Shown here piece by piece: positions 1,412 to 64,000 of a stretch of 64,000 nucleotides of DNA. The first letter of the stretch is position 1, and every line of letters begins with the position of its first letter. The DNA is taken from positions 352,001 to 416,000 of the forward strand of contig CAWBZI010000006.1 in the NCBI GenBank assembly GCA_963793265.1, written 5' to 3'. The notes beneath the pieces were generated by a model. That model searched no databases, had not been told where the DNA came from, and saw only the letters and a list, made by a program, of their open reading frames with translations. The position numbers and the translations under genes are program-made. This DNA is from an uncultured cyanobacterium (GTDB taxonomy: Bacteria > Cyanobacteriota > Cyanobacteriia > Phormidesmidales > Phormidesmidaceae).

Positions 1412-1888
1412 CTACGGTCGCCGGGCAGGAGTCTTGTTCTCAAATATCAACACTTTTACTAAGCAAATAAAACCGATGTTGATCCAAATGTCTGCCAGGT
1501 TAAAAACCGGGAACTGAGTTACCGGGAATACCTGTAAAAAGTCCACAACTTCTCCAGTCAAAAAGCGATCGATACCGTTGCCAAAAGCACCACTTAATAT
1601 AAAGCCGTAGCCGACTTCTTCCCAGCGGTCGGGCCAGCGCGCGGTGAGCCCTAGCACAATTAGCGCCACACTCACGAGCAGCGACAGCCAGCGCAACCAT
1701 TCGCCGTTTTCACTAAACAGGCTCCAGGCAGCGCCTCTGTTAGTGGTGTGATAAAAGTTCAGTACACCTGGAATGATTTCGATTGCCTCTCTGAGCGGTA
1801 GCGCCTGAAGTACCCACTGTTTTGTGAGCTGATCGAGGATGACGCCAGCGATCGCTACCAGCCAAAAAACAGGGTTTCTAAGTCTCAT
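1412..1888 (-). CDS. lspA: Lipoprotein signal peptidase II
   Basis: DQLTKQWV, NRGAAWS, GAFGNGIDR, VVDF, FPVFNLAD motifs. Confidence 0.96.
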   Translation of the reverse strand: MRLRNPVFWLVAIAGVILDQLTKQWVLQALPLREAIEIIPGVLNFYHTTNRGAAWSLFSENGEWLRWLSLLVSVALIVLGLTARWPDRWEEVGYGFILSGAFGNGIDRFLTGEVVDFLQVFPVTQFPVFNLADIWINIGFICLVKVLIFENKTPARRP

Positions 1889-1921
1889 AGATAATCACTT
1901 CAAGTTCGCTAGGTCAGTAAG

Positions 1922-2518
1922 TTAGTAAAACAGGGCTTTACGCAAGCCGTAGGCAATAAGGGCGATCGCACAGGTCACCATTACCTGTCCAGGGATCAGC
2001 ACTATAGAGTATGTCATGATGGCGGTTGGCAGGGAAAAGTCAGCCGCGATCCAGCGAAATAAGTACCCCAAGCACAGATAGGTAAGCCCGCATACGTGCA
2101 CCACCAATAATCCGCTCAAAGCCGCAAATCCTAGCCGCTCGGGCGTGGGCTTATCTCGAAATGCCAGCTTGCCACACAGCCACGCTGCCGGAATAAAGCC
2201 CAGTAAATAGCCGAAGCCCGGATCGCGCAGGTAGCTCAGCCCAGCGTCCTGAGTAAATATTTCTAGCTGAAACCGCTCAAACAGTACAACGCCTAGAATC
2301 ACATAGGCAATTTGTGCGATCGCTGCCGCATTCTTCCCGCCCATACAGCCCGTAAACAGCGCCGCACCGACCTGAAACGTCACCCCCAGCGAATAGGGCA
2401 CCACCGCACTCGCTTCGCCCTGCCACAAAAGCCAGGGCACCCCAGCTTCAAGCCAGCTACTCAAAATCGTCAAAATCAGGCCAATCAGCGCCCAAAGTAG
2501 CTCGTACGGAGCAAACAC
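1922..2518 (-). CDS. bioY: Biotin transporter BioY
   Basis: Hydrophobic protein with VTFQV and PGFGYLLGFIPAA motifs; lies just upstream of lspA as in many cyanobacteria. Confidence 0.88.
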   Translation of the reverse strand: MFAPYELLWALIGLILTILSSWLEAGVPWLLWQGEASAVVPYSLGVTFQVGAALFTGCMGGKNAAAIAQIAYVILGVVLFERFQLEIFTQDAGLSYLRDPGFGYLLGFIPAAWLCGKLAFRDKPTPERLGFAALSGLLVVHVCGLTYLCLGYLFRWIAADFSLPTAIMTYSIVLIPGQVMVTCAIALIAYGLRKALFY

Positions 2519-2728
2519 CTATCTTTTTCTCGCCTACGTAAAAACCTTATTAGCGAACCTTTGCCGCCTGTCTCTGCTCAGCATTCTAGGCTAATACCTC
2601 CCCCGCGCGGCCCGTATCTATCCAAACCATCCTTTTTTAAGGAACGTAACTTTTAGGCAAATCTGCTTAAATCCGCTTGATACAGGCTTTACACTTGTTT
2701 GCACTATTGTCTGAGTGTAGAGCCCAAC

Positions 2729-3706
2729 ATGTTTCCTACTCATCGCCCCCGCCGCCTGCGATCGCACGAAAACCTCCGCCGCATGGTGCGAGAAAACATC
2801 GTCACCACAAACGATCTGGTCTATCCCCTATTCGCCGTTCCCGGCGATAGCTTTTCTCAAGAAGTCAAATCGATGCCCGGCGTCTATCAGCTTTCGGTAG
2901 ACAAAATCGTTGAAGAAGCTAAAGAAGTCTATGACCTGGGCATTCCTGCCGTCATTTTGTTTGGCATTCCTACCGAAAAAGACACCGAAGCCACGGGCGC
3001 ATGGCACGATCATGGCATTGTGCAAAAGGCAACTGAGGCCATCAAAAAAGCCGTCCCCAATCTGCTAGTAATCGTCGATACCTGCCTGTGCGAATACACC
3101 GATCACGGCCACTGCGGCTACTTAGAAGTGGGCGATCTTTCAGGCCGAGTGCTCAATGACCCCACCTTAGAATTACTAAAGAAGACGGCCCTTTCTCAAG
3201 CTAACGCAGGCGCTGACATTATCGCCCCTTCCGGCATGATGGACGGCTTTGTGCAGGCCATTCGCCAGGGTCTAGACTCAGGTGGCTTCAACGACTTGCC
3301 CATTCTTTCCTACGCCGCCAAATATTCTTCTGCCTACTACGGCCCCTTCCGTGACGCTGCCGAATCAGCCCCTCAGTTTGGCGACAGACGCACCTACCAG
3401 ATGGATCCAGCCAACGGCACCGAGGCCATTAAAGAAATCGCCCTCGACATTGCCGAAGGCGCTGACATGCTGATGGTCAAGCCCGCGCTAGCCTACATGG
3501 ACATCATCTGGCGAGTTAAGGAAGCGACTAATCTGCCGGTAGCGGCCTACAACGTCTCTGGCGAATATTCCATGGTGAAAGCAGCAGCGCTCAACGGCTG
3601 GATAGATGAGGAAAAAGTGGTTATGGAAACGATGACCAGCTTTAAACGATCTGGCGCAGATATGATTTTGACTTACCACGCTAAGGATGTTGCGCGCTGG
3701 CTCTAA
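2729..3706 (+). CDS. hemB: Porphobilinogen synthase (ALA dehydratase)
   Basis: [11 protein letters not shown] start, [45 protein letters not shown]. Confidence 0.98.
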
Positions 3707-7177: not shown

Positions 7178-9205
7178 ATGATTCAGGTTTCTCGCTCACA
7201 CACTTTGCCGGTAGCCTTAGGTCGATTGACTGCTCCTGCTAAAAAGACTGGCGATCGCACTCTACACGGCAGGCCCACTAGAAAACTCGCGACAGGACTA
7301 CTCGGATTTGCAGTCGGTGCGCTGTCTTGGAGTGCTTTGTCTTTGGGTGCGATCGCCAATCAAGCGATCGCCCTACACCGACCCCAAATTTCTACCCAAG
7401 CCGCAAGCAATCCTGCACCATCCCGCAGCCCGCTCTCTACCCAGGCAATGTACCGCGAGCTAGCAAATCTCACGGGCCGAGTCGAAAGCACCTATCTTGC
7501 TAATCACGCTCAAAACCAGCCAACCCAGCTCCGCGTAGTCGATTCCACACTCACCGCCAGCGCGAACACCGCTCCTACTATTCCAACGCCCCTACCCGCC
7601 GAACTACAGGCCGCTCAGCAGCTTTTAAACGACTGGCAAGGGCTAATCTCCCAGGGCGAGTACGAAACAGCACACCAGCGTTTTCAAACGGTGACTGATT
7701 CGTTGCGCAGTGCCCAAGTAGCCCAAACGCAGATTGCCGGGCGCAGCGCTCAGCCCGAAGTCCGCTCTATCTGGCTAGACCGTGAAACGATTGTCTCTGC
7801 CGGTTCTCAAGAGGGCTTAGCCAAAATCTTTGAGCGCTTCAAAGCAGCGGGCATTAACACCGTTTTTGTTGAAACCGTCAACGCGGGCTACCCCATCTAT
7901 CCCAGCACGGTTGCCCCAGAGCAAAACCCGCTCATCTCAGGTTGGGATCCGCTTCAGGCTTCTGTAGAACTCGGCAAAGCCTATGGCCTAGAAGTTCACG
8001 CCTGGGTTTGGCTATTTGCAGCGGGCAACCAGGCGCACAATCCGCTCGTGGGCAAGCAGACCAACTACCCTGGCCCTATTCTCACCGCTCACCCCGACTG
8101 GGCAGGCTTCGACAATCACGGCAACCTCATCATCCCCGGCCAAACCAAACCCTTCCTCGACCCTGCGAATCCCGAAGTCCGCCAGTATCTCTTCAACATC
8201 CTCAGCGAAATCGCTGGTCGCTACGACGTAGACGGCATCCAGTTCGACTACGTTCGCTATCCTTTTCAAGATCCTGCTAACAACCGCCTCTTTGGCTATG
8301 GCAATGCCGCTCGCCAGCAGTTCCACGCTCTCACTGGTGTCGATCCAATTTCTCTTTCTCCTAAAAACGGCGGCGACCATCGCAAAGCCTTCCTCTGGGG
8401 TCAGTGGACAGAATTTCGCACGCAGCAAATCAGCTCTTTTGTGGCTGAAGCCTCTCAGCGCCTCCGCCACCAAAAGCCCGGCATCAAAATTTCTGCCGCC
8501 GTTTTTGCAGACGACACTCGCAAGCGCCAGCAAACGCTTCAGCAAGACTGGGAGGACTGGGCCGATCAGGGTCTAATTGACTGGATTGTGCTGATGAGCT
8601 ATGCCAGCAGCACTCAGCGCTTTGATGAGCTGATTCGGCCTTGGGTTGTTGAATCTAGCTATCGTCACACGCAAGTGATTCCGGGTATTCGATTGTTGAA
8701 TCTGCCAGCCGCGATCGCCCACGACCAGCTTCAGCTACTGCGAGATTTGCCCACCAACGGCTATGCTCTCTTCGCTGCTGACAACCTCACGGGCGATGTG
8801 CAGGCAATGCTAGCGAGAACGCAGGGCAATGCTCAAAGCGATGTTGCGACCAGCGGCAGTGATACAACAAGCTATACAACCGCTTCGGCTCAGTACAAGT
8901 CTCTTCAACAAGAGTGGAACTGGCTGCTGACAAATCAACAGATTCAGGGAGATTCGCAGCGGTTAGCGCGATGGGTGAGTGATGTCAATCAGATAGGAGA
9001 GAGTTTGGATGATTTGGGGAGTGAGCCTTCGGCTAGGGAGTTGCAGCAGGTGACGGCGCGGTTGGATGGGTTGGGGCGATCGCTCCCCACCAGCCTGAGC
9101 GTAAATGTAGCAAGCACCCCTTATCGCCTCCGCACCTGGCAAAACCGCCTCACCGCCATCAATCGGCTATTGGCCCACACCCAAACCTCACCTGTAAATT
9201 CGTAG
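7178..9205 (+). CDS. Glycoside hydrolase-like family 10 (YngK/DUF187-type) protein, probably exported
   Basis: EVRSIWLD, GINTVFVET, GLEVHAW, LDPANPEVR, YDVDGIQFDYVRYP, QDWEDW; hydrophobic N-terminal segment. Confidence 0.85.
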   Translation: MIQVSRSHTLPVALGRLTAPAKKTGDRTLHGRPTRKLATGLLGFAVGALSWSALSLGAIANQAIALHRPQISTQAASNPAPSRSPLSTQAMYRELANLTGRVESTYLANHAQNQPTQLRVVDSTLTASANTAPTIPTPLPAELQAAQQLLNDWQGLISQGEYETAHQRFQTVTDSLRSAQVAQTQIAGRSAQPEVRSIWLDRETIVSAGSQEGLAKIFERFKAAGINTVFVETVNAGYPIYPSTVAPEQNPLISGWDPLQASVELGKAYGLEVHAWVWLFAAGNQAHNPLVGKQTNYPGPILTAHPDWAGFDNHGNLIIPGQTKPFLDPANPEVRQYLFNILSEIAGRYDVDGIQFDYVRYPFQDPANNRLFGYGNAARQQFHALTGVDPISLSPKNGGDHRKAFLWGQWTEFRTQQISSFVAEASQRLRHQKPGIKISAAVFADDTRKRQQTLQQDWEDWADQGLIDWIVLMSYASSTQRFDELIRPWVVESSYRHTQVIPGIRLLNLPAAIAHDQLQLLRDLPTNGYALFAADNLTGDVQAMLARTQGNAQSDVATSGSDTTSYTTASAQYKSLQQEWNWLLTNQQIQGDSQRLARWVSDVNQIGESLDDLGSEPSARELQQVTARLDGLGRSLPTSLSVNVASTPYRLRTWQNRLTAINRLLAHTQTSPVNS

Positions 9206-37448: not shown

Positions 37449-38111
37449 CTACTTGCCTTTAATCATTTGGGCCTTCATCTGAGCGAGCTGCGCTTCGACG
37501 TTGCTCTGATTTTCTAGCTGGGAGAACTGCTTCTCAATCAGGTCACCAGAGAGTTCGCCAGCGACTTCTGCCTGCGCTTCTAAATCAAGTACGCGAGCCT
37601 CCATCTTTTCAAAGGCACCTGTTGCCGTCGCGCCACCGCCGCTCATTCTTTCATGCAGCCTAGTGCTCGACTGAGCCGCCCGAGCCCGAGCGATGTACAT
37701 ATCTTTTTGGATGCGGGCTTTGGCTAGCTGGCTTTCGAGCGATCGCATATTGGCCTTAAGCTTTTTAACGATGTCTGTATGCTGAGCAATTTGGCTTTTG
37801 AGCGTGTGGGCGTTTTGAGCATAGGTTTGCCGGTGCGATAGCGCTTGGCGGGCGGTGTCTTCGTCGCCTTTTTGCAGGGCTAGCTGAGCGCGCTGGTAGT
37901 ATTCTTGAGCGGTGCGAGTGGCCTGCTCGCTCTGTCGTTCGGTGCGCTTTTGGGTTGCGATCGCCTGAGCCACCGCCTGTCGCAGGCTCACCAAATCACC
38001 CTGCATATCAAACACTGCCTGCTGCAACGCTTTTTCAGGATCTTCAGCGCCATTCACCAGCGTATTAACGTTTGCTCTTACAACCCGAGAAATGCGATCT
38101 AGCAGTCCCAT
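37449..38111 (-). CDS. pspA: PspA/IM30 family protein (no Vipp1-type C-terminal extension)
   Basis: MGLLDRISRVVRAN, AEDPEK.L.Q, AFEKME.RV. Confidence 0.9.
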   Translation of the reverse strand: MGLLDRISRVVRANVNTLVNGAEDPEKALQQAVFDMQGDLVSLRQAVAQAIATQKRTERQSEQATRTAQEYYQRAQLALQKGDEDTARQALSHRQTYAQNAHTLKSQIAQHTDIVKKLKANMRSLESQLAKARIQKDMYIARARAAQSSTRLHERMSGGGATATGAFEKMEARVLDLEAQAEVAGELSGDLIEKQFSQLENQSNVEAQLAQMKAQMIKGK

Positions 38112-39383: not shown

Positions 39384-39968
39384 ATGGCGCTAGAAGGGTT
39401 AGACGGATTAATCAAAGGCTTAGAGAACCAGGAAAGCTGGCAGGTGCAAAAGCAGTTTCGCCTTGTGCTTCTTCACTGGCCAAAAGCCGTCGGGTTTGCC
39501 GTGGCTCGCAAAACTCGCCCGGTAGGAATTCAGCGCGACACGCTATACGTTGCAACCTGTACAGCGGCTTGGGCACAAACGCTGGCTTACGAACGCCTCA
39601 ATATTTTACGTAAGCTCAATCGCTATCAGCCAAAGCCGCTAAAGACGATTCGGTTCTCGACAGCTCAGTGGAATCAGGCGGTGGGGAGAGGGCGCGAGGC
39701 AGGTGGTGCGATCGCATCTTCTAATGCACCCAACAGTGACCCCAACACAGGCAGATTGAAAGGCCACCCCAGCTACATCGGAGAGGTTCCTACCATCCCA
39801 CCCGATACCCAGCTCACCCCTCAAGAAGCTTTCCAGCGCTGGGCAGGTACGTTGCAACAGATGCAGCGTGTTCAGTCGCTTTGCCCGATTTGTCATTGCC
39901 GCTGCCCGAAAGGAGAGCTTGATCGGTGGGGTAGGTGCGCACTATGCGCCACAAAGCAGTGGCAGTAA
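39384..39968 (+). CDS. DUF721/DciA family protein with C-terminal Zn-ribbon
   Basis: WPKAVG..VA..TRP......LYVA....AWAQ.L; CPICHCRCP...CALC. Confidence 0.85.
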   Translation: MALEGLDGLIKGLENQESWQVQKQFRLVLLHWPKAVGFAVARKTRPVGIQRDTLYVATCTAAWAQTLAYERLNILRKLNRYQPKPLKTIRFSTAQWNQAVGRGREAGGAIASSNAPNSDPNTGRLKGHPSYIGEVPTIPPDTQLTPQEAFQRWAGTLQQMQRVQSLCPICHCRCPKGELDRWGRCALCATKQWQ

Positions 39969-43171: not shown

Positions 43172-44026
43172 ATGGTGGCTGCTGTTTCCCTTCAAAATGT
43201 TCACAAAGTTTATAACAATACTTGCGTGGTGAATGACCTGTCGCTGGCCATTCAGCCAGGAGAAATTTTCGGACTGCTGGGGCCGAACGGGGCTGGAAAG
43301 TCTACGACGATTCGGATGCTAACGACCCTAGCGCAGCAGACTCAGGGCGATATTGTGGTAGCTGGCTATGATGTGAGCCGTCAAGCAGCGCAGGTACGGA
43401 GCCAAATTGGGGTGGTGTTGCAGCAGGTGAGCGTCGATGCGGATATGACGGCCTGGGAGAATATGGAGTTTCATGGGCGCATGCACCATATTCCATCGGC
43501 GCAGCGGCAGGCGGATATTCGGCGCTGGCTGGACTATGTGGGCTTGAGCGATCGCGCCCAAGACAAAGTAAAAACCCTCTCCGGCGGCATGAAAAGGAGG
43601 CTACAAATTGCCCGAGCCCTCCTGCATCAGCCCAGCATTTTATTTTTAGACGAGCCTACTGTCGGCCTTGATCCGCAAACGCGCAGGCGGCTATGGGAAA
43701 TTATTCGGGCACTGAATAAGGATCAGGGTATGACGATGCTGCTGACGACGCACTATATGGAGGAAGTGGAGTATTTGTGCGATCGCATCGGCATTATGGA
43801 TCAAGGCAAGCTGATTGAAACTGGCACCCTGTCAGAGCTGCAGCAAAAGCATGGCGAAGGAATTGTGATGAAGCAGAAGGGCGATCGCTGGGACTATATC
43901 TTTTTCCCGACCCTGCAAGAGGCCAACGATTATCTTGACGCGCAGCCAGACAAAACAGGTATGATGACGCGACCTGCCAACTTAGAAGACATTTTTGTTG
44001 AGCTGACGGGTCGCAACCTCGACTAG
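43172..44026 (+). CDS. ABC-2/DrrA-type ABC transporter ATP-binding protein
   Basis: GPNGAGKST, LSGGMKRR, LFLDEPT, TTHY, LEDIFVELTG. Confidence 0.93.
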   Translation: MVAAVSLQNVHKVYNNTCVVNDLSLAIQPGEIFGLLGPNGAGKSTTIRMLTTLAQQTQGDIVVAGYDVSRQAAQVRSQIGVVLQQVSVDADMTAWENMEFHGRMHHIPSAQRQADIRRWLDYVGLSDRAQDKVKTLSGGMKRRLQIARALLHQPSILFLDEPTVGLDPQTRRRLWEIIRALNKDQGMTMLLTTHYMEEVEYLCDRIGIMDQGKLIETGTLSELQQKHGEGIVMKQKGDRWDYIFFPTLQEANDYLDAQPDKTGMMTRPANLEDIFVELTGRNLD

Positions 44027-44060
44027 CTCCGCCTTTCTAGAATTGATGAAGCACTTAAAT

Positions 44061-44852
44061 ATGTCTCGTCTTGCCAATACCATCGAAGCGATTTTATATC
44101 TGAAGGCGCAGCCCTTAAAAATTGCTCAGATTGCAGAATTTGCTAAGTGTGACAAAGACAGCGCCGAAGAAGGCTTGATTGCGCTGATGGGCGAATATGC
44201 TCACAGAGAAGGTGCTTTAGAAATTGCTGAGACAGAAGAGGGCTATGCGCTTCAGCTCAGGGAGGTGTATAAGCCGCTGGTTGATACGATTGTGCCATTG
44301 GATATTGGATTAGGGGCGCTGCGGACGTTGGCGGCGATCGCACTACGCGGCCCCATTGCCCAAAGCGAACTGGTTGATTTACGCGGCTCTGGCGTCTATC
44401 AGCACGTGCCTGATTTAGTTTCGCAAGGCTTTATAAAAAAGCGCCGACAGTCTGACGGGCGCTCCTCGTGGCTGCAAATCACCGAGAAGTTTTATCAGCA
44501 CTTCAAAATCGACAAGCTGCCCCAAATTGCGAATTTGAGCTTGCCTACACCCATCAAAGCAACGCCATCCGATGTCGATGCCACGACAGTTGCTACGACA
44601 TCGGACGCAACAGTTGACGCCGATGGCTCAGCGCCCGTGCCGACTGCTGAGCCGCTTGACTCTTTAACCTCAGCGCCCGAGACAGAAGGCGAAGTGTCCG
44701 AGACAACTGAGCATCTATCTGAGGCTAGTCGTGAGGAGATTGCGGTGCTTTCTGGAAGCGCGCTCCCCTCTGAAGGCTCTGTGCTCTCTGATGCCGCTAT
44801 CGATCAGGCCATGCCGTCTGAAGACGAAGAATCTGCAAAAGAAGAAGAGTAG
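44061..44852 (+). CDS. scpB: SMC-Scp complex subunit ScpB
   Basis: IEAILY, ALRTLAAIA..GPI.Q..L..LRG, TEKFYQHF; long acidic tail. Confidence 0.9.
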   Translation: MSRLANTIEAILYLKAQPLKIAQIAEFAKCDKDSAEEGLIALMGEYAHREGALEIAETEEGYALQLREVYKPLVDTIVPLDIGLGALRTLAAIALRGPIAQSELVDLRGSGVYQHVPDLVSQGFIKKRRQSDGRSSWLQITEKFYQHFKIDKLPQIANLSLPTPIKATPSDVDATTVATTSDATVDADGSAPVPTAEPLDSLTSAPETEGEVSETTEHLSEASREEIAVLSGSALPSEGSVLSDAAIDQAMPSEDEESAKEEE

Positions 44853-45047
44853 GCTTTACAGACAAGCAAATAAATTAAGAAAATGCATATCCGGGTCATA
44901 ATTCGTTAAGCTGTCACTAGCTGACCTTTAAAGCTTGCAGAATTCTTTGAAGGATGCGTGGAAATGACCCAGAGATGACCTCTGAAGATTCACCCATTCT
45001 GATTGCGCTCTCAGCGGTTAAGCTAACAGCAGTTATGCAGTATCTCT

Positions 45048-45404
45048 ATGGTTTTCAACCCTGAAAGCGCAGACTTCATCAGCCTGAATGCCGAGGACGG
45101 CAAGTCCAACGAGCTTTTGACTTACTTGCAGCACCAGCCACCCGAGGTTCTTAGCCGGGTTGCTCAATCAGTCAGCGGTGAAATTAAACAGATCATTTCT
45201 CACAATGTTCAGGGCCTTGTAGGCGTTTTGCCTGCTGATGGTTTTAATGTGCAGGTGAGTACCGACCGCGAAAATCTAGCAGGTTTGCTCGCCTCAGCGA
45301 TGATGACCGGCTACTTTTTGCGTCAGATGGAGCAGCGTATGGAGCTAGAAACCAATCTGTCGGGCTCATTAGACTTAGACGACGATCTTGATTCTGAAGA
45401 GTAG
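45048..45404 (+). CDS. DUF760 family protein
   Basis: L..YLQ.Q.PE, NVQGLVG.LP, RENLAGLLASAMMTGYFLRQMEQRMELE. Confidence 0.9.
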   Translation: MVFNPESADFISLNAEDGKSNELLTYLQHQPPEVLSRVAQSVSGEIKQIISHNVQGLVGVLPADGFNVQVSTDRENLAGLLASAMMTGYFLRQMEQRMELETNLSGSLDLDDDLDSEE

Positions 45405-45444
45405 CGTTTACTCTAAATTCTAATTACATCTACTCAAATAAGGC

Positions 45445-45498
45445 CAAATAACCCGTAGGCGATCGCTTCCAACATGCGATTCTCCTATGGGTTATTTG
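45445..45498. terminator. Long hairpin between convergent DUF760 gene and htrA
   Basis: CAAATAACCCGTAGG / CCTATGGGTTATTTG stem extended by a HIP1-containing segment. Confidence 0.7.
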
Positions 45499-45523
45499 CA
45501 TTTACAGGCGATTGGAGTCCGGC

Positions 45524-46771: not shown

Positions 46772-46980
46772 GTCTAAATATTCCTCTTCAAAGTAGCCGC
46801 AATCATCTCAGCCGTTGTGCTAGTTGTCATCTCCAACTCCTTTCAAGAGCCCCTCTCAAGAGTATAGAGGTCAAAAGTCATAGAGACGTTCCTTCTACTT
46901 TAGCGAGTTCTGCCCTGAGAACCTGCTGGCTATCTTGAAATATATGATACTTACTAAAGTTTGTAGACTTTACATAATTC

Positions 46981-47940
46981 ATGCCTCGATCTTTCGACTC
47001 GCCTCAAGCAATCAGCCGACTAGCCAGTTTAACCAGTATCGCTGCTCAATTAACGACTCGATTAGCAGCTCGGTTGACCATCGGCGTTCTAGTCGTTGCG
47101 GCCTACGGTCAGCCTGCTTATAGCCAGCCTACTAACCAGTCTGTAGTTAGCTCTACTAAAGCAAACCCTAGCTGTCCGGCTGCTTTAGATCGAATGAGAT
47201 CGCATACTGTCTCATCAGGCGACACGCTCGCTAGCGTAGCAGCAGCCTACCGCATCGCACCGAATACACTAGCTCGGTTCAATCCTGGTATTGGCAGTAG
47301 CCTATCGCCGGGATCGACGCTGGCGATTCCGCCCTTCAATGGCGTGGTTGTGAGCCCAGCCGCTGGTGATACCTGGCAGACGGTGGCAGAGCGATACGAA
47401 AGTCGGGCTGATCTACTGTTTGAGATCAATGGCTGTGTCGCTGATTTGCCTGGGCAGATTTTTGTGCCGGGTGCGATTGGCCCTAGTGCGGCCCCAGGCG
47501 CGATCACAACTCGATCAACCACCGTCACCCAGCAGCTCGGCTATCCCCTGGCTCGCCCGGCAAACGTCGCTCTTAGCTATGGCTGGCAACCGCACTCCAC
47601 CCGAGACGAACTCGTCTTTAACAGCGGCATCGCCTTTATCATTCCAAACTCCGATGAGGTATTGGCGGCGACTGGTGGTACGGTAGCGTTTGCTGGCGCG
47701 CAAGCAGGGCTTGGGCAGATGGTGGTGATCAATCACTCACAGGGGCTACAAACTCGGTATGCCAACTTGAGTGAGATATCGGTTTCTGTCGGGCAAGCTG
47801 TAGCGGCGCAGGCGACGGTGGGCAAAGTAGGGGGCAACAGCGACCCCACCTTTATGTACTTCGAGGTGCGTACCAACTCAGACTCGGGTTGGATTGCTCA
47901 AGATCCGGGCAGATATTTGCCTGATTTGGAGCTGCGTTAG
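46981..47940 (+). CDS. LysM / M23-like peptidase domain protein
   Basis: HTVSSGDTL (LysM), second LysM-like unit, M23 fold (V.AA.GG.V.FAG, VVINH..GLQTRYA.L). Confidence 0.85.
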   Translation: MPRSFDSPQAISRLASLTSIAAQLTTRLAARLTIGVLVVAAYGQPAYSQPTNQSVVSSTKANPSCPAALDRMRSHTVSSGDTLASVAAAYRIAPNTLARFNPGIGSSLSPGSTLAIPPFNGVVVSPAAGDTWQTVAERYESRADLLFEINGCVADLPGQIFVPGAIGPSAAPGAITTRSTTVTQQLGYPLARPANVALSYGWQPHSTRDELVFNSGIAFIIPNSDEVLAATGGTVAFAGAQAGLGQMVVINHSQGLQTRYANLSEISVSVGQAVAAQATVGKVGGNSDPTFMYFEVRTNSDSGWIAQDPGRYLPDLELR

Positions 47941-48105
47941 GTGCCATGCTAGCTTTTTTGGCCGAAGTTTCAAAGATGTACGCATAAACAGCTATTTATG
48001 TCTAACTGAAAGAAAAACTCGCTTAAAGCTAGCCAATCGTATAATATGCCTCTACAATTCCGGTATCTTTTGGATAAGAGGCTCCTTAAAGGACTCCTTA
48101 TTACT

Positions 48106-49293: not shown

Positions 49294-50555
49294 CTTTTCG
49301 CCCAGGCGATCGCCTCTTCTTTTGAGTCAATAGTGCCTGCTGCCTGCGCTTGTTCTACCGCCTTGAGTAGCGCACCGACTTCTGGCCCTGGCCTAACGCC
49401 GAGCTGCTTCATGATGACGGTGCCGGTTATCAGCGCGCGGCTGTGAGCGATGGGGTTCTCAGGGTCGAGAAAGCGGGCAATCATGGGCCGTAGCATGGCG
49501 ATGTCTACGCCTTGAGCTACGGCTAATAGAGAAAAGGCTGGGAAGCTTTGACCGACTGCTTTGAACAGGAAAAACTGCTGCGATCGCGTTAACACATCAC
49601 AGCGCATGGCCTCAATATGGGGCTGCGCTTCGATTAGCATGAGCACTACTTGAGCTTCGCTGCGGCTGTATTTGAGCGCCTTGAGCTGCTCGCGGGCGAT
49701 CACCACATCCGCACAGAATATTTGACTCAGCTTGGCCGCTTTTATCCAGCTTTGATAAACGCCTGCTGGCACTGGCTTGATCCAATCTTGCAGGCGTTCA
49801 GCGTAGGCTGGCATTTGCTGCCTCAATTGAGCGATCGCCCGATCAATTGAGGCTATTTCCTCAACGCTATCTGCGGTGAAATGAGGTAAGCAAAACTGTA
49901 AGAGCTGGCTGTTTACCATTGGGTTCAGCACTGCTTTGTATAGCTGTTGGCCGCTTGACTGAACGCTGAGCAGGGCATCCAGTTCGCTATGGATACGCTC
50001 AACAGAGACACCTGCGAGCTGAGGAGCAAGCTGATCAATAGCAAGCTGAGTTTCTGGCGATAGGGTAAACCCTAGCTGCGCGGCCTGGCGGTAGCCTCGC
50101 ATCAGGCGGAGCGGATCGTCAGTAAGATTTTGGGGGCTGACCATGCGGATAACTTTGGCTTGGATGTCTGCCTCGCCGTTGAGCGGATCGATCAGGGTTT
50201 GGTTTTTGGGGTGGTAGGCGATCGCATTAATCGTAAAGTCGCGTCTGTGCAAGTCGGCCTCAATACTTTCCCCTTGCTGCTGCGCAAAATCCACCGTGAC
50301 CTGATCGAAAACAACCCGCGCAATTTCTCGTTCGGCATCAAGCACTACAAATCCAGCCTTGTAGGCTCGCGCAATTTTTGAGGCGGTTTTAATTGTGTGC
50401 TCGGGCAGCACGAAGTCTAGATCGAGGTAGCTGGCCTGGCGGTTGAGGAGGCGATCGCGCACGCTTCCGCCGACCAAGCAAGCCGCATCAGGCAGTAAGT
50501 CAATTGAAAAAGGCCAGGTTTCAGGTAAAAAGAGAGACATAAAAAATGGGCGCAA
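49272..50555 (-). CDS. cca: CCA tRNA nucleotidyltransferase (class II; probably the CC-adding type)
   Basis: LVGGSVRD, DLDF, DLHRRDFTINAIA, DDPLRLMR; no DHH/CBS domains. Confidence 0.88.
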   Translation of the reverse strand: MRPFFMSLFLPETWPFSIDLLPDAACLVGGSVRDRLLNRQASYLDLDFVLPEHTIKTASKIARAYKAGFVVLDAEREIARVVFDQVTVDFAQQQGESIEADLHRRDFTINAIAYHPKNQTLIDPLNGEADIQAKVIRMVSPQNLTDDPLRLMRGYRQAAQLGFTLSPETQLAIDQLAPQLAGVSVERIHSELDALLSVQSSGQQLYKAVLNPMVNSQLLQFCLPHFTADSVEEIASIDRAIAQLRQQMPAYAERLQDWIKPVPAGVYQSWIKAAKLSQIFCADVVIAREQLKALKYSRSEAQVVLMLIEAQPHIEAMRCDVLTRSQQFFLFKAVGQSFPAFSLLAVAQGVDIAMLRPMIARFLDPENPIAHSRALITGTVIMKQLGVRPGPEVGALLKAVEQAQAAGTIDSKEEAIAWAKSYIEAVR

Positions 50556-51004: not shown

Positions 51005-53023
51005 ATGGTCTATTGTCCAAATCCTGTGTGTCCATCGCCGCAAAATGCTTTGTTGGCTAATTTTTGCCAGGCTTGCGGTACGCCTTTGACAGTAGCCGAA
51101 CAGTATCGATTGAAATCGATTTTAGGTGAAGGTGGCTCAGGTCGAACGTTTTTGGCCGAAGATGCAGCGGGTAAAACCTACGCCATTAAGCAGCTCTACG
51201 GGGCTCAAGTAGGCAAAACCGACCGTGAATATGACTTTAAAGCGGTAGCTGAGCGACTGCGTAAGCTGGGTGAACATTCGCAGATTCCACGGTTAATAGA
51301 AGCGATAGAAGTCAGCTTGCAGCACCAGATAGTTCGGTTTTTGGTGCAGGAATATGTGTCAGGTGACAATCTGGAAAAGCAAGTAGAGACGGATGGGCCT
51401 TGGACGCCGATGCAGGTGCGATCGCTCCTTTCCCAGTTAGTACCCGTTTTACAATACGTCCACAGCTTCAACGTCATTCACCGAGACATCAAACCTGCAA
51501 ATATCATTAGCCCGAGCAAGAACGCTTCAGATTTGCCAATGCTGGTAGACTTTGGCGCGGCTAAGTGGATACGCAAAGCACCCGCTAAGACGGTTGTTGG
51601 CAGCGCGGACTATGCGGCTCCTGAACAAACGATGGGGCAAGCGACTTTTGCCAGTGACATCTATAGTTTGGGGCTCACCTGCCTACATCTGCTCACGAGC
51701 ATTCATCCTTTTTCGCTTTATTCTATTGCCGAAGATCGCTGGGTTTGGCAAGACTATCTGCCGCAGCCGATTGAGCCGCGATTGGCTCAGGTACTCGATC
51801 AGATGGTGGCTCGCGCTTTGCCTCAGCGCTACGAGAGTTTTGATCAGGTCGCACTCGACTTACAGTTTTCGCAAGACCCGTTGCGCTATGCGTCTAAGCA
51901 GCTCTTGACACTAGCAAAGGAAGCAGCTCCTTTTATTAGTTCTGCGTCGAGTTCTGTTGCAGGCGCACTTCACTCAGCCCGTAAGCAGCCTTCTAATCGG
52001 ATATTTGCCAAAAGTAAAGCGGCTATTGGACAGAAATGGTGGTGTCAGTACCGGCTAACTGAAGCGATTGGCGTAACGCAGGCGATCGCACTCAACATTT
52101 TCTCACCATCTTCCACCCAGGCCCCGACCCTAGCCACCGCTGGCACCGATGGCTCAATTCGCCTGTGGCATCTGCCCAGCGGTCAGCTTATTCACACCTT
52201 TCATCGGCGACGGCTCATAGGTAGCGGTCACACTGCTGCGGTTACGGCGCTAAAGTTTCACCCTGACGGGCGGGCGCTATATAGTGCAAGCGTCGATGGC
52301 ACAATTAAAGAGTGGGACTGCGGCGAATGCTGCTTGCTCAATACGTTGCCGAACGCGGGCTGGACGCCTACAGATTTGGCCGTTACCCCTGATGGCACTC
52401 AGCTCGTGAGCCCTTACAGTGATGGCCAGATTGCCCTCTGGGATATTGCCACGCTTCAGCCTACGGCCCAGCTTGCCCAGCATCAAAACAGTGTGAGGGC
52501 GATCGCGTTCACTACAGATGGCGAATGGCTAGCCAGCGCTAGCGACGATGGCACGATTAAGCTATGGCGATGTCAGCAAGGACAAGTGAGGAGGCAGGTG
52601 CCTCAGCTTTCTAAAACCATCAGCCTTGAGAAGCCAATCGCGCTAGCCTTCTATTCATCGCCACTTAACCCATCGGCCTCTATCTCTACAGTCTTTACCT
52701 GGCAGCTCATCGTTGCGACTGCTAGCGGACTTGTGCTGCGCTACGGTTTAGACGCGCAGGCTAACCCTAGTGAGCCTGAAACTATCTATCAGTCACCTTT
52801 GGCTATTACGGCTTTTGCGCTTAGTGCTGACGGCACACTCGCAATCGGCAGCGAAAACAGAGTTCTAACCCTGTGGAACTTGAGCACAGGAGAATGTGTG
52901 GCCGAGCTTGCGCATGACTGGGGGCTAGTGACAGCTACTTTCACCGCCGATAGCCAAACGCTGATTACGGCGAGCGCTGATGAGGTAGTTTCGGTATGGC
53001 AGCGGGACTCGAAGGGTTCGTAG
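51005..53023 (+). CDS. Ser/Thr protein kinase with N-terminal Cys4 motif and WD40 repeats
   Basis: YCPNPVC...FCQACG, GEGGSG, AIKQ, HRDIKPAN, DFG, APEQ; WD40 repeats (DGSIRLW, DGTIKEW, DGTIKLW). Confidence 0.92.
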   Translation: MVYCPNPVCPSPQNALLANFCQACGTPLTVAEQYRLKSILGEGGSGRTFLAEDAAGKTYAIKQLYGAQVGKTDREYDFKAVAERLRKLGEHSQIPRLIEAIEVSLQHQIVRFLVQEYVSGDNLEKQVETDGPWTPMQVRSLLSQLVPVLQYVHSFNVIHRDIKPANIISPSKNASDLPMLVDFGAAKWIRKAPAKTVVGSADYAAPEQTMGQATFASDIYSLGLTCLHLLTSIHPFSLYSIAEDRWVWQDYLPQPIEPRLAQVLDQMVARALPQRYESFDQVALDLQFSQDPLRYASKQLLTLAKEAAPFISSASSSVAGALHSARKQPSNRIFAKSKAAIGQKWWCQYRLTEAIGVTQAIALNIFSPSSTQAPTLATAGTDGSIRLWHLPSGQLIHTFHRRRLIGSGHTAAVTALKFHPDGRALYSASVDGTIKEWDCGECCLLNTLPNAGWTPTDLAVTPDGTQLVSPYSDGQIALWDIATLQPTAQLAQHQNSVRAIAFTTDGEWLASASDDGTIKLWRCQQGQVRRQVPQLSKTISLEKPIALAFYSSPLNPSASISTVFTWQLIVATASGLVLRYGLDAQANPSEPETIYQSPLAITAFALSADGTLAIGSENRVLTLWNLSTGECVAELAHDWGLVTATFTADSQTLITASADEVVSVWQRDSKGS

Positions 53024-54692: not shown

Positions 54693-56384
54693 CTAACGAA
54701 CCGCAGACCGCAGCCATCCACTCATAAAGTCCACGCCAATCGTCAGGACTATAAACGCTGTAAGCGTAGCGGCGAGTCCGCTGTAGTCAAAGTTGCTGAG
54801 CTGCTCAGTCATCAGTCGTCCCAGTCCGCCTGCGCCAACTAAGCCCACAATGACCGTCTCTCGCAGGCACACTTCCCAGCGGTAGAGAATGTAGGCTAAA
54901 AACCGCGCCAGGGTTGCCGGTAAAATGCCGTAGAAAATGAGGCCACCGCTAGAGGCCCCGAGCGATCGCAATCCCCTCACCGGCCCATCAGGCAGGTTCT
55001 CATTCACCTCGGCCATGAGCCGCCCCAAAATGCCAAAGTTGTGAATGCCTAACGCCAAAGCGCCCGGCAAAATGCTGGGAAACATGCCGTATAAAATTAC
55101 CAGGGCCAAGATGGGAGCCGGGATTGCTCTAGCGCCCAAAAGTAACAGCCGAGTCAGCAGCATCGCCACGTGCCCTATGCTCCAACGACGCGATTCACCG
55201 ACTGAGCTAAGCAGACCGCCGGGTAAAAAGAAGTTCTGAGCGGCTGGGAAAGAGAATGCAATACCGCCGATACCAGCAAAGGTGATAGCCAGCGCCGACA
55301 TGGCGACGGTTTGTAGCGCGAGCGGGAAAAGGGACAAGGAGAATTCGGGTAGGACTTGGGCGGGGGTGACTTGAGCAACAAGATCTGTGAGGAGCGATCG
55401 CGCCCTTGCCCATCGGCTCCAGTCAATATTCAAGTAGGCAAAGCTAAGCGGCAGGGAAAGCGCCATTACGCCCCACGAGAAGGCTATGAACAGCGGTTGG
55501 CGTCTGGGCGATCGCACCCCACTATTTTCCGAAACCCCACGCCCCAAACTCAACCGGCTCACAAATCCCATCTGCCGCCGCAGCCGAGCACTCCAAAAGT
55601 CCACCGTCCCATTCAGCAATATCAGCGCATAAAATCCTGTCCATAGCTCCTCGTAGCGCAATGATTGCAAGCTCAGTAAAATCTGATAGCCCAAACCGCC
55701 CGCGCCAATGACACCTAGAACGGCAGCGGCCCGCAATGAACACTCGAATCGATAGAAGCTGTAGGAAATTAGGTTCGGCAGTGCTTGGGGCAAAAGCGCG
55801 TAGGTAAACGCAATAACTGGCTTTACACCGCTATTAACCAGACTCTCTAGCGGCGCTGTTGGCGTTTCGTCCAAAATTTCTGAGAAGACTTTCGCAGTAA
55901 TTGCGCCAAACGGAATTGCGATCGCCAGCACCCCTACAATCGCATCCAACCCAAAGACATTCAGCAGCAACAGTCCCCAAATCAGCTCATGAATGGCCCG
56001 AGGGATGGCAATCAGCCCGCGTAACGCAATCCATAGCCCGCGCCCAATTCTGCCAGGAAAGCACACCTGCCACCACACCTCAGAGCAGGCAATCCCAAGC
56101 ACAAATCCAATGACTAAGCTCAACGCCGTACCGCAAATGGCAAACGCTAACGTCGTCAAAGTAGCCTGAGCCATCACCTGTAGAAAGTCGGCATCTAAAG
56201 CTGGCCGAAACATGCCCGCCCAGAACTGGCCCATCACCGTAAAGCCCGCCCAGTTCACAACCGGAGATCGACCTATGCCAGAAAGCCACAGCGCCCAGAG
56301 GATTAGCCCTATCCAAACGAGTAAGGCAACTTGAGAATGACTTAATTTTTGAGGTATTTTAGGCAGCAGTTTCTCAGGCGGCAT
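54693..56384 (-). CDS. phnE: PhnE/PtxC-like ABC permease with two fused membrane domains
   Basis: RAIHELIW, YRFECSLR.AAVLGVIGAGGLG and YRWEVCLRETVIVGLVGAGGLG. Confidence 0.85.
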   Translation of the reverse strand: MPPEKLLPKIPQKLSHSQVALLVWIGLILWALWLSGIGRSPVVNWAGFTVMGQFWAGMFRPALDADFLQVMAQATLTTLAFAICGTALSLVIGFVLGIACSEVWWQVCFPGRIGRGLWIALRGLIAIPRAIHELIWGLLLLNVFGLDAIVGVLAIAIPFGAITAKVFSEILDETPTAPLESLVNSGVKPVIAFTYALLPQALPNLISYSFYRFECSLRAAAVLGVIGAGGLGYQILLSLQSLRYEELWTGFYALILLNGTVDFWSARLRRQMGFVSRLSLGRGVSENSGVRSPRRQPLFIAFSWGVMALSLPLSFAYLNIDWSRWARARSLLTDLVAQVTPAQVLPEFSLSLFPLALQTVAMSALAITFAGIGGIAFSFPAAQNFFLPGGLLSSVGESRRWSIGHVAMLLTRLLLLGARAIPAPILALVILYGMFPSILPGALALGIHNFGILGRLMAEVNENLPDGPVRGLRSLGASSGGLIFYGILPATLARFLAYILYRWEVCLRETVIVGLVGAGGLGRLMTEQLSNFDYSGLAATLTAFIVLTIGVDFMSGWLRSAVR

Positions 56385-61817: not shown

Positions 61818-61944
61818 AGTGAGATGCTAAGGACTTATTTAAGACTATGTTATTTCGGCAGAATTGATTGTGGGGCGCTATGCCAATTTTAGAGATCGAA
61901 TTTTCAGACAAATTTTCAGGCGATGGATTTGAGGGCGCGATCGC

Positions 61945-62724
61945 CTACAGCATCTTGCGCTCTGCTTGCTGCACAATCAGCAAAGAAAAGTAAGGAAGCT
62001 GCAAGTCAGGGCAGCTTTCAAGCCCCCGAAAAACCTTTTGCTCGGTTCTGGTAGCCCTTTCTACCACATAGCTATGTGCCAATAGCTGATGCCGCTCCAA
62101 TATTTTCCACACCTGACGATAAACGCTGCCTACTTTCATCAGCACCACGACCTCAGCCCATTTCAAAGCCTTTTCCAGCTCATTCCCCGGCTCATCTTTC
62201 AGATCATCACTATCTGCCTGAAAGCTGTACAGCGCTGGCAAAATCGCAAGCTTCTCGGCCTGACACGTGAGCGGAATGCCAAGTGCTGCTGCTGCTGCCA
62301 TCGGAGAAGAGACGCCCGCGACAGCCTCTACCTTTACGCCGGGATGCTGCTTTTGTAAGTGCTGAGCAAGATAGGTAAACGTGCCATAAAAACTTACGTC
62401 ACCTTCGCAGGCAAAGGCGACATCGCCTTTTTGTAAGTAGGGCCAAACCATTTCAGCGGCCTTCTGCCAGGCAGCGGATAGCGCTTGCGCGTCTAACACG
62501 TAGGGAAATCTCAGCGCGAGCCGGGTTTGCGAGTCGTTCAGCCACGGCTCAATAATTTGTTCAGCCACGCCCGGTCGGCCTTTAGTACCGGCGGGGAAAG
62601 CCACGACTGGCGAAGACTGTAGGTATTTTAGGGCTTTAAGCGTCAGTAGCTCTGGATCGCCTGGGCCGACACCAAGGCCGTAGAGCGTGCCTGGTGTGTC
62701 TGTAGCGCTAAAGTGCTGTTCGAT
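61945..62724 (-). CDS. cobI: Precorrin-2 C20-methyltransferase
   Basis: GTLYGLGVGPGDPELLTLKA lies in frame upstream of the track's GTG 62604; CEGDVSFYGTF, GVSS, VLMKV, PYFS; start apparently ATC at 62724. Confidence 0.9.
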   Translation of the reverse strand: MEQHFSATDTPGTLYGLGVGPGDPELLTLKALKYLQSSPVVAFPAGTKGRPGVAEQIIEPWLNDSQTRLALRFPYVLDAQALSAAWQKAAEMVWPYLQKGDVAFACEGDVSFYGTFTYLAQHLQKQHPGVKVEAVAGVSSPMAAAAALGIPLTCQAEKLAILPALYSFQADSDDLKDEPGNELEKALKWAEVVVLMKVGSVYRQVWKILERHQLLAHSYVVERATRTEQKVFRGLESCPDLQLPYFSLLIVQQAERKML

Positions 62725-62806
62725 GGATAGTACCTCGTCATCGTTTTATGAAGCTTGTATCATCTATCACCTCTTTTGCTTGCGATCGCGTCAAGGTCGT
62801 TAGAGG

Positions 62807-64000
62807 CTAAGCATTATTGTTAGTCGGATTGGGATTGGTTTGTGAGTCTTTGGCTAGCTTTTCTGCTTTTGGTTTTTCTGCTTTTGGCTTTGCCAATTGC
62901 CGTGATGGCTTACGTGCTCCAGATAATCGCTTCATCATCTGAGGCGTTGGATCGTGAATCAGACAGATGAGGGCGCTGTCAGGCTGCCACTCTGCTTCGT
63001 CTAGCACCAGCTCTAGCTTGCCGTTCGTCTCAATCGCTAAAGGCACCGCGTCGCCTGCTCTGATCAGTTTGTTGACGCGATCGCGCTGAGCACTCATATC
63101 ATCTTCAGTATCCGTACTCGTAAACTCGTAGGTCGTTTTTTCAAAAGCATCGTCTGCAATAAAAGTATTCCACTGCTTCACTGGCAGCCGAGGCGTCTTA
63201 ATATCCCCCCGAGTCTTGCTGTCGGCCTCACCCGCTTCGGTACGCGGCAGCACAGCAAACACACGCGGCGGCCCAAACTCCTCCTGAGCCCGCTCAGCAA
63301 TCACAGAGTTAACCTCACCGTTATTCGTAATCGCTAAAAACGTCCCAATCGAGCTAAGCCCGGCCTCTTCCAGCATCTCTTCATTTAGCGCAGAGCCCAC
63401 ATAAGTCGTAAAGCCCTCGGCCTTGGCCTGCTCACAAGCCGCCTCGTCAGTGTCGATAATCACCACCGATTCACCTTTATCTTTAAACAATCGCCCAATC
63501 GTCAGCCCCATTGCATTACAGCCCACAATCACCACCCCCGTAGCGCTGCTAGAGGTAACGCCGAGCAACTGCGCAAAGCTACGCGCGGTCAGCCCTTGAG
63601 CAAACACAGTCATAATAATGGTTAAAAACACCAGCGCCTTAATAGAGTCACCACCGTTGATACCGCGCTCAGTGAGCAAAATCGCGAATAAAGAGGCTAC
63701 CGAAGCCGATACGATCCCACGAGGCGATATCCAGCTCATGAAAGCCTTTTGTCGCCAGTTGAGGTCGCTATTCCAGGTGCAGACCAAAATGTTGATAGGC
63801 CGCACGATTAGCATCAGCACTAGCACCGTGAGCACCGAGCCAGAACCAAGTTCAAACACACTGGCAATGGAAAGATCGGCTGCTAGCAAAATAAACAGCA
63901 CCGACACCGAGAAGATTGTGAGCTGTCCTTTGAACCGTCGCAGCAGTCTTTCTTCAGGAATGGAGATCGCGCGCACGACAATGCCTGCGGCGACTGTGGC
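62807..64000 (-). CDS. Cation:proton antiporter (NhaP-type) with TrkA-N/RCK domain, 5' part outside window
   Basis: FKGQL...VSVLFILLAA, WISPRGIVSASVASLF, TVFAQGLT, Rossmann-like IVGCN..G. Confidence 0.9.
   Translation of the reverse strand, partial: ATVAAGIVVRAISIPEERLLRRFKGQLTIFSVSVLFILLAADLSIASVFELGSGSVLTVLVLMLIVRPINILVCTWNSDLNWRQKAFMSWISPRGIVSASVASLFAILLTERGINGGDSIKALVFLTIIMTVFAQGLTARSFAQLLGVTSSSATGVVIVGCNAMGLTIGRLFKDKGESVVIIDTDEAACEQAKAEGFTTYVGSALNEEMLEEAGLSSIGTFLAITNNGEVNSVIAERAQEEFGPPRVFAVLPRTEAGEADSKTRGDIKTPRLPVKQWNTFIADDAFEKTTYEFTSTDTEDDMSAQRDRVNKLIRAGDAVPLAIETNGKLELVLDEAEWQPDSALICLIHDPTPQMMKRLSGARKPSRQLAKPKAEKPKAEKLAKDSQTNPNPTNNNA

Follow-up and report, generated by a model that had tools for sequence, protein, structure and literature searches.

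The window analysed here is the whole 64,000-nucleotide stretch G000:C6:352001-416000, where G000 denotes the genome under study; positions below are those of the window unless a contig is named. The element in question is the palindromic octamer HIP1 (GCGATCGC), which occurs 72 times in the window against 1.74 expected, with at most 6 copies in 100 shuffles. The genome holds 6,888 copies in 5.68 Mb, spaced on average 822 bp apart (median 585 bp; <200 bp in 18% of spacings), and by the yardstick of about one copy per kb HIP1 is over-represented in G000. An earlier note on this DNA had described a switch in base composition at HIP1, from G/T-rich on the 5' side to C/A-rich on the 3' side. The G-to-C flip is strong and is found at nearly every copy; the T/A half is real but weak, the genome-wide AT skew at HIP1 lying between -0.03 and -0.05 on the left flank and between +0.04 and +0.08 on the right one.

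Each copy was given a score, G minus C at distances (d) of 3-50 on the left minus the same quantity on the right. In the window, 60 of the 72 copies score above 0, compared with 46% of 5,000 random window positions (binomial p 1e-10). Genome-wide the score is positive at 84% of the 6,886 copies scored, with a mean of 8.4 and a standard deviation of 8.0; random positions have a mean of 0.0 and a standard deviation of 6.9 and are positive at 46%. Because the distribution of scores across HIP1 copies is unimodal, the flip is a property of nearly all copies and not of a subclass. All 12 sites named in the earlier note score positive, from +8 to +26, and open reading frame (ORF) calls bear out the gene strands it gave, with 9076, 34143 and 43548 in + ORFs and 37957, 50218 and 55508 in - ORFs. 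The sites are listed here; no strand is assigned to any of them.

1848..63084: the 72 HIP1 copies, each the centre of a switch from 5' G-rich to 3' C-rich (60/72 lean so)
7349..7371: HIP1 pair, 15 bp apart (7349 and 7364), in a + ORF; scores +20 and +21
9076..9083: HIP1 in + ORF 7178-9205; score +22
34143..34150: HIP1 in + ORF 32847-34520; score +17
37957..37964: HIP1 in - ORF 37449-38111; score +19
39708..39715: HIP1 in + ORF 39384-39968; score +20
43548..43555: HIP1 in + ORF 43172-44026; score +11
44334..44341: HIP1 in + ORF 44046-44852; score +12
50218..50225: HIP1 in - ORF 49272-50540; score +15
51418..51425: HIP1 in + ORF 51005-53023; score +16
52082..52089: HIP1 in + ORF 51005-53023; score +26, the window maximum
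55508..55515: HIP1 in - ORF 54693-56384; score +17
61937..61944: HIP1 in no called ORF; score +8
62782..62789: HIP1 with the opposite lean, an exception; score -18

Further negative copies lie at 4958 (-12), 45459 (-11) and 52499 (-10). Another close pair of copies, 32 bp apart, is found at 40719-40758.

Pooled over the window at d 3-50, GC skew at all positions is +0.121 on the left and -0.188 on the right; at four-fold degenerate sites it is +0.403 (G 207, C 88) on the left and -0.447 (G 86, C 225) on the right. Over the 6,886 sites genome-wide, skew on the left flank declines from +0.36 at -5..-1 and +0.18 at -20..-10 to +0.09 at -75..-50 and +0.04 at -150..-100, and the right flank is its mirror image. 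The pattern is polar on each strand and reads alike on both, as had been claimed; that each strand is G-rich 5' of HIP1 and C-rich 3' of it, at nearly every copy, is confirmed. In what follows, the incoming strand is the part read 5'->3' into HIP1 and the outgoing strand the part leaving it: the incoming strand is pushed to G and away from C, and the outgoing strand the reverse.

Genes were called crudely, as ATG-started ORFs of at least 100 amino acids with greedy removal of overlaps (4,406 ORFs, ~82% of the genome). In + genes (3,087 HIP1 copies), four-fold skew on the left is +0.58 at d 3-10 and falls through +0.45, +0.39, +0.31, +0.25, +0.21 and +0.11 to +0.07 at d 150-200; on the right it runs from -0.61 at d 3-10 to -0.11. 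The values in - genes (3,020 copies; +0.58/-0.59 at d 3-10) match these within 0.03-0.05, against backgrounds of -0.05 and -0.01. The sign change thus persists at four-fold sites and is of equal size in + and - genes. At d 10-20, the four-fold skew of 0.45 compares with shifts of ~0.10 at codon position 1 and ~0.05 at position 2; the footprint is strongest where selection is weakest. The eight four-fold codon families all shift in the same way: compared with codons that have no HIP1 within 600 bp, their G/C goes up 2.4-4.4 fold upstream and down to 0.30-0.43 fold downstream. These four-fold and codon-family tests rule out an artefact of codon, frame or gene strand.

Amino-acid usage also differs between the two flanks at 4-50 bp. 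Val (GTN, 6,571 versus 4,732) and Gly (GGN, 6,204 versus 5,048) codons are enriched upstream relative to downstream; Leu (CTN, 7,374 versus 4,979), Thr (ACN, 5,497 versus 4,149) and Pro (CCN, 4,296 versus 3,574) codons are enriched downstream relative to upstream.

The reach of the footprint, f(d), was obtained by a regression that credits each of 435,290 four-fold G/C sites to both neighbouring HIP1 copies, with a common offset uncertainty of ±0.02. The fitted value is 0.72 at 4-10 bp, 0.60 at 11-20 bp, 0.49 at 31-50 bp, 0.39 at 51-75 bp, 0.26 at 101-150 bp, 0.16 at 201-300 bp, 0.13 at 401-600 bp, 0.06 at 801-1200 bp, 0.03 at 1201-1600 bp and about 0 beyond 1600 bp. The decay is steep over tens of bases and then flattens into a tail of about 0.5 kb; as the median spacing is 585 bp, the result is a sawtooth between HIP1 copies.

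The footprint also crosses gene borders. For a HIP1 copy in an adjacent gene of opposite strand, f(d) falls from +0.39±0.04 (61-120 bp) through +0.21±0.03 and +0.15±0.02 to +0.11±0.01 (301-600 bp); where the copy lies in the same gene, the matching bins give +0.29, +0.18, +0.12 and +0.08. Since the footprint extends undiminished into opposite-strand genes, it acts at the level of DNA, and a cause at the level of mRNA or translation is rejected. The gene-strand, codon-family and gene-border tests therefore agree with the earlier statement that codon bias or transcription direction alone does not explain the flip.

HIP1 lies mostly inside genes, and its raw profile shows a 3-base periodicity. 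A first ‘intergenic’ class proved to be mostly unannotated coding DNA, since it had the same periodicity, and was replaced by a strict non-coding class, in which no position falls within a stop-to-stop frame of 80 codons or more, whichever strand is read (7.2% of the genome, with no 3-base periodicity). The footprint is present there too, at +0.25±0.03 (4-10 bp), +0.09±0.016 (11-30 bp) and +0.09±0.012 (31-60 bp), then +0.05 and +0.02.

Once anchored at large distance, the footprints of strands whose 100-kb skew is positive and of those where it is negative are alike, so that no dependence on the replication strand is left; the raw difference between replication strands is circular, because the classes are defined by skew itself. 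The 100-kb GC skew of contigs C1, C4 and C6 itself reaches -0.12 to -0.14 and +0.13, which is large for a bacterial chromosome. An incoming strand that is also the sense strand goes with a footprint ~1.2-1.7 times larger, a difference that is collinear with baseline terms and not robust. An extended hairpin or cruciform was also considered and rejected: the arms of HIP1 have no complementarity beyond that expected from composition, and there is a deficit at ±1 to ±3 (-0.074 at ±1), that is, extension of the palindrome is avoided.

The nature of the base change can be read from the incoming strand at four-fold sites, where C goes from ~0.29 to 0.12-0.15 and G from 0.29 to 0.42-0.45, with T steady at 0.23-0.25 and A at 0.16-0.20. 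G+C content at third codon positions (GC3) runs 0.58 -> 0.61 -> 0.57 along the flanks, and the purine content of the incoming strand is up from ~0.48 to ~0.60. The change is an exchange of G for C, with A and T unchanged. Log-odds shifts relative to distant codons, at d 4-20, are as follows.

ln(G/C), four-fold: upstream +1.30, downstream -1.09
ln(G/A), four-fold: upstream +0.65, downstream -0.56
ln(T/C), four-fold: upstream +0.62, downstream -0.63
ln(T/A), four-fold: upstream -0.03, downstream -0.11
ln(G/A), two-fold NNR: upstream +0.56, downstream -0.65
ln(T/C), two-fold NNY: upstream +0.93, downstream -0.51

The force acts as an additive preference of about +0.65 for G, about -0.65 for C and about 0 for A and T. 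In two-fold codons C can yield only to T, and G only to A, so the weak AT skew comes largely from these codons. The earlier note had proposed C->T and A->G deamination on an exposed strand. The two-fold T/C and G/A shifts go in the direction that this predicts, but deamination is not sufficient at four-fold sites: as the sole cause it would raise T, lower A and lower GC, whereas T, A and GC3 are steady there. Moreover, transitions leave purine content fixed, yet purines rise, so C->T and A->G alone cannot explain the change.

The footprint is specific for the full octamer. Among control words at least 250 bp from any HIP1, there is no flip at GATC outside CGATCG (n=10,220; skew -0.013/-0.011) or at CGATCG outside HIP1 (n=606; -0.019/-0.029). 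The 55 palindromic 6-mers are flat (standard deviation of the odd skew 0.007), as are the 70 palindromic 8-mers (standard deviation 0.020, largest magnitude 0.065, compared with 0.172 for HIP1); none of these 125 palindromes has a flip equal to that of HIP1. Only two of the 24 one-mismatch variants carry the flip, GTGATCGC (n=195; +0.14/-0.154) and GCGATCAC (n=239; +0.124/-0.136); the transition variants at G3/C6 have a faint trace of it. Neither a flip nor a half-flip is seen when position 1 or 8 is altered (six variants, n=44-82 each). The flip thus needs the full octamer or one of these two variants.

GTGATCGC and GCGATCAC are also the commonest one-mismatch variants, 2-4 times above the others, and they are the C->T products at the cytosine that is 5-methylcytosine (m5C) in Synechocystis HIP1, where M.Ssp6803I is reported to methylate the first C of CGATCG (m5CGATCG; PMC6105098). 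Being C->T products that are 2-4 times commoner and keep the flip, they suggest that the flanks hold the history of a methylated HIP1; on this sequence pattern we read them as dead HIP1 copies that still bear the scar. Two such variants in the window are listed here.

47500..47507: GCGATCAC variant, nearest intact HIP1 1,360 bp off; score +17, flip retained; probably a dead HIP1 copy
33628..33635: GCGATCAC variant, nearest HIP1 515 bp off; score +8

Other genomes were first compared by per-site scores in samples of 80 kb each. Two genomes of the same genus match G000 (8.6±0.7 and 8.1±1.0), two more are weaker (4.5 and 3.7), and G039, from another family, scores 3.4±0.7. A whole-genome ratio, R, was then used: the number of HIP1 flanks that have G at all of -22, -13 and -7, over the number that have C at all three, counted on both strands. 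These distances are congruent to 1 mod 3, so that the flanks share codon phase and R is 1 when there is no antisymmetric skew. In one draw of 301 genomes of the phylum, 128 were tallied (the rest had zero or few counts) and the 106 with at least 100 counts were scored. R is above 1 in 97 of the 106, with p<0.01 in 57 of these, and below 1 at p<0.01 in 3; the median is 1.41. The highest values are those of G000 (4.76), G077 (4.44) and G225 (3.85), and G077 has a profile like that of G000 with a shorter reach. Related genomes are not independent; by genus, the median R exceeds 1 in 64 of 70.

In place of HIP1 (4 copies), genome G027 uses GGGATCCC, with 88 copies in 80 kb; these 88 sites have no clear flip, at low power. 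Among the genomes compared, the closest are mostly 65-82% identical to ours piecewise along 10 kb, the longest pieces being near 70-73%; silent sites are therefore saturated among these relatives. DNA near-identical to window positions 30001-50000 occurs in metagenome contigs from three studies (macroalgae, sediment and biofilm). All nine runs listed as carrying it are metagenome contigs, none of them RNA, and 924 differences were counted; run X1 differs from this part of the window at ~34 places in 20 kb, and close strains therefore exist.

The reading that we favour, to which we would give slightly less than an even chance, is that HIP1 anchors polar strand removal, 5'->3' on the outgoing strand, together with uneven mismatch correction. 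A strand break would be made or used at HIP1. The outgoing strand would be degraded 5'->3' and synthesised anew with the incoming strand as template, some patches spanning only tens of bases and other, longer tracts up to ~1 kb. Because resynthesis would take place on the incoming strand, mismatches in the tract would be settled in favour of that strand; their possible sources are transforming DNA, errors of replication and heteroduplex formed between copies of the chromosome. If mismatches with G (G:G, G:T, G:A) were recognised better than the reciprocal ones (C:C, A:C, C:T), the incoming strand would retain G and lose C, and the net outcome would be a strand-asymmetric biased conversion. The mismatch hierarchy of Escherichia coli MutS is G:G>C:C, G:T>A:C, G:A>C:T and A:A~T:T; with the outgoing strand always excised, this hierarchy would reproduce the signs of all six pairwise log-odds. 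The earlier note had likewise invoked a strand-polar process that starts at HIP1 and acts on DNA, and this part of its proposal agrees with a flip that is HIP1-specific and has the sign fitting outgoing-strand removal. Methylated HIP1 has been reported to raise transformation >100-fold, and, in Synechococcus PCC 7002, to raise recombination ‘in a manner reminiscent of Chi’ (bioRxiv 10.1101/2024.09.10.611283).

Several observations weigh against this reading. At equal distance and HIP1 class, the strict non-coding footprint is 3-5 times weaker than that at four-fold sites, and a uniform DNA-level bias predicts a weak non-coding footprint only with heavy constraint or fast turnover. Four-fold sites beside the 212 non-coding HIP1 copies have +0.30±0.08, +0.17±0.04 and +0.12±0.03; non-coding positions beside genic copies have +0.13, +0.09, +0.04 and +0.03. 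The strength tracks the type of flank position and not the location of HIP1, so the age of HIP1 copies is rejected as the cause of the weak non-coding signal. Constraint (RNA genes, signals) or fast indel turnover could explain it. Half-sites that keep one G-m5C (NCGATCGC and GCGATCGN) have no half-footprint. The mismatch hierarchy is that of E. coli MutS and may not be that of the cyanobacterial protein, and composition alone does not separate a fixation bias from a mutation bias.

The comparison among genomes adds to these points. In G029, with HIP1 every 320 bp, the 250 copies scored average only 0.12±0.47 and whole-genome R is 1.30; this genome is HIP1-dense yet almost skew-free, and HIP1 density and footprint strength are thus uncoupled. 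In genus g25 the flip is reversed at short range, and all 3 genomes with significant R<1 (G219, G149 and G182) belong there. Of the 374 copies scored in 480 kb of G219, 96% have G at -1, HIP1 there being effectively the 10-mer GGCGATCGCC. Four-fold sites of the incoming strand have a skew of -0.38±0.04 at d 4-10 and of -0.12 at d 11-20; after deconvolution the values are -0.33±0.04 (4-10 bp), ~0 up to 100 bp, +0.08±0.01 (101-300 bp) and +0.04±0.01 (301-1000 bp). Two components may thus be at work: at long range the sign is constant, and at short range both size and sign vary with the lineage. In favour of the reading, amplitude and short-range sign that vary by lineage mean that the footprint does not come from HIP1 alone, as expected for an enzyme-dependent process.

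As to the enzymes, no nicking enzyme was identified in G000. MutH (PF02976) has 0 matches in this genome (98.97% complete), and the E. coli control was detected; Vsr (PF03852) also has 0 matches in G000. A MutL_C match lies at G000:C4:331509-331874, inside a 590-amino-acid open frame. The presence of MutL is in line with the favoured reading. MutL does not discriminate, however: among the HIP1-rich genomes of the draw only G128 (94% complete) yielded no match, and yet its R is 1.73. There are two copies of RecJ in G000, G077 and G029 and one in two genomes of the reversed genus; with five genomes, a relation between RecJ copy number and footprint is a lead only. The review PMC5101192 places recC mostly in marine picocyanobacteria.

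G000 has seven C5-cytosine methylase genes, in the following regions.

G000:C1:1595214-1599113: C5-methylase region
G000:C4:629559-633638: C5-methylase region
G000:C6:499621-514138 (contig coordinates): C5-methylase region
G000:C5:1-2846: C5-methylase region
G000:C1:808348-812517: C5-methylase region
G000:C4:91534-95584: C5-methylase region

Their neighbours include one HNH nuclease, one SmaI-like and one SinI-like protein. The match beside the SmaI-like nuclease contains two stop codons, and three of the methylases adjoin proteins without a Pfam match (261, 265 and 189 amino acids). No neighbour of a C5 methylase in G000 could be linked to HIP1. The second RecJ-like gene of G000, at G000:C6:55603-57079 in contig coordinates (outside the window), is matched in two pieces of 373.7 and 62.8 bits, both below the cut-off; it may be split or frameshifted, to judge from a TGA inside the second piece.

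Among the other explanations, the one that survives best is damage to single-stranded DNA, which we nevertheless consider unlikely. On this view, close to that of the earlier note, a nick or double-strand break at HIP1 would be followed by 5'->3' resection, leaving the incoming strand as a 3' tail in which C (and A) is damaged and misrepaired. The polarity is correct, C is the base lost on the incoming strand, the two-fold T/C and G/A shifts are as predicted and a range of 0.1-1 kb fits resection; the resected flanks of human hotspots are described as having C>N and A>N changes that differ between the strands, among them C>G, which is attributed to translesion synthesis (PMC7615360). At four-fold sites, however, T is not up, A is hardly down (ln T/A -0.03 to +0.06), GC3 is not lower (0.57-0.61) and the net change is C->G, so that a pure mutation model needs several rates tuned to keep T/A constant. 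The eukaryotic C>G route, in addition, depends on REV1, which is not known from bacteria.

It is less probable still, and in our view doubtful at best, that the skew itself is selected as part of a larger element, for example as a G(/T)-rich 3'-ending strand that loads a recombinase or binds an uptake or processing protein. RecA prefers GT-rich DNA, and additive log-odds are the pattern of any selection-like force. HIP1 in donor DNA is also reported to raise transformation and recombination in a methylation-dependent, ‘Chi-like’ manner (bioRxiv 10.1101/2024.09.10.611283). Against this, a smooth gradient of ~1 kb at 6,888 sites would put thousands of sites under very weak selection; non-coding DNA, in which such selection would be unhindered, has the weakest skew; dead copies retain the skew; and some HIP1-rich lineages have little or none.

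We regard as very improbable the reverse order of events, in which G-to-C switch points came first and HIP1 then arose or survived preferentially there. The sequence of events cannot be read from cross-sectional data, and the unimodal scores include no obvious footprint-free young class; but switch points have no independent source, random positions averaging 0 and control palindromes being flat, and possible precursor words have no flip, only the deamination products do. The gradient is also centred on the octamer within 3 bases and scales with the distance to both neighbouring copies. A mostly genic HIP1 and a 3-base periodic profile might speak for an artefact, be it of codon usage, of reading frame, of gene orientation, of replication skew or of extended hairpins; this is next to impossible. 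The footprint agrees in sign and size between + and - genes, holds at four-fold sites and in each of the eight codon families, enters opposite-strand genes, is present in aperiodic non-coding DNA, is absent from 125 control palindromes and does not depend on large-scale skew after anchoring, and the arms of HIP1 are not complementary beyond composition.

Returning to strand removal anchored at HIP1, we would entertain with more reserve the broader proposal that HIP1 may be the entry or strand-choice site of a cyanobacterial repair-recombination system of fixed polarity, a functional counterpart of GATC/MutH or Chi that would be built on a methylated palindrome and would have rewritten synonymous sites and, measurably, amino-acid usage genome-wide, as a sawtooth from one copy to the next. 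If so, lineage differences in strength, reach and short-range sign would reflect the enzymes that cut and resect at HIP1, and the footprint would be a sequence-only assay for finding such enzymes by phylogenetic profiling; R or f(d) can be computed for each cyanobacterial genome and correlated with gene content. HIP1 has been described as lacking an agreed function for thirty years (PMC13756078). A polar, kilobase-scale footprint tied to the octamer and to its probably methylated cytosine is direct sequence evidence of one-directional action per strand at HIP1, and narrows the hypotheses to excision, resection or recombination initiated by a strand break, an action that can be tested in model strains of cyanobacteria. 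Local GC skew, codon usage and the usage of Val/Gly versus Leu/Thr/Pro all depend on the distance to HIP1, which matters for studies of codon bias, selection and horizontal transfer.

No description of flank skew or asymmetry at HIP1 was found in the open literature, a scope that excludes subscription-only papers and supplements. Word searches of the text available for PMC4390886, PMC5861425 (Xu et al. 2018) and PMC13756078 (2026, GBE) returned no mention of either, and PMC4390886, in the portions consulted, examines only short extensions of HIP1. The closest proposal is Elhai's hypothetical G-m5C-directed mismatch repair at HIP1 (Life 2015, PMC4390886), which connects HIP1 with the CGATCG m5C methylase and with MutS/MutL repair from a nick at the site; the reach that it expects, up to ~1 kb, agrees with the range of the present footprint. 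As set out in those portions, the model predicts neither polarity nor flank composition, and it expects 7-mers (GCGATCG or CGATCGC) to suffice; in G000 the footprint is confined to the full octamer and its deamination product.

Among well-known systems, Dcm/Vsr very-short-patch repair differs in that Vsr was not found in G000. Dam/MutH of E. coli resembles the present case in using a short methylated palindrome, GATC, as the site of a strand break, with excision over hundreds of bases; MutL, a further part of that system, is present in G000. It differs in that MutH was not found in G000 and that the 10,220 GATC sites outside CGATCG have no flip. The E. coli system excises in both directions, and we know of no composition footprint at its GATC sites. 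Replication GC skew is likewise a G-versus-C strand asymmetry with sign flips at defined points, but it extends over megabases from two points, as opposed to 0.1-1 kb from 6,888 points here; the sign change at HIP1 is of the ‘terminus’ type, does not depend on large-scale skew, and locally the skew at four-fold sites is much greater (up to 0.6-0.7).

GC-biased gene conversion, a selection-like fixation bias from heteroduplex repair, would give additive log-odds such as those seen here; it favours G and C alike over A/T, whereas here G and C move in opposite directions and GC3 barely moves. Human meiotic double-strand break hotspots, according to the parts consulted of Hinch et al. (2023, PMC7615360), resemble HIP1 in an asymmetry that changes sign at a specific site, there a break, and in a prominent loss of C, including C>G; the asymmetry there affects the 3' single-stranded tail over 1-2 kb. 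They concern de novo mutations in a eukaryote rather than equilibrium composition, and their A>N and C>T changes do not fit an unchanged T/A. Chi with RecBCD/AddAB is, like HIP1, an over-represented octamer with a polar effect that decays with distance (here to ~0 by 1.6 kb). It leaves the site-bearing 3'-ended strand as recombinogenic single-stranded DNA, which would correspond to the incoming strand at HIP1; we know of no skew footprint in the flanks of Chi. In contrast to Chi, which is asymmetric and follows the orientation of replication, HIP1 is palindromic and acts both ways.

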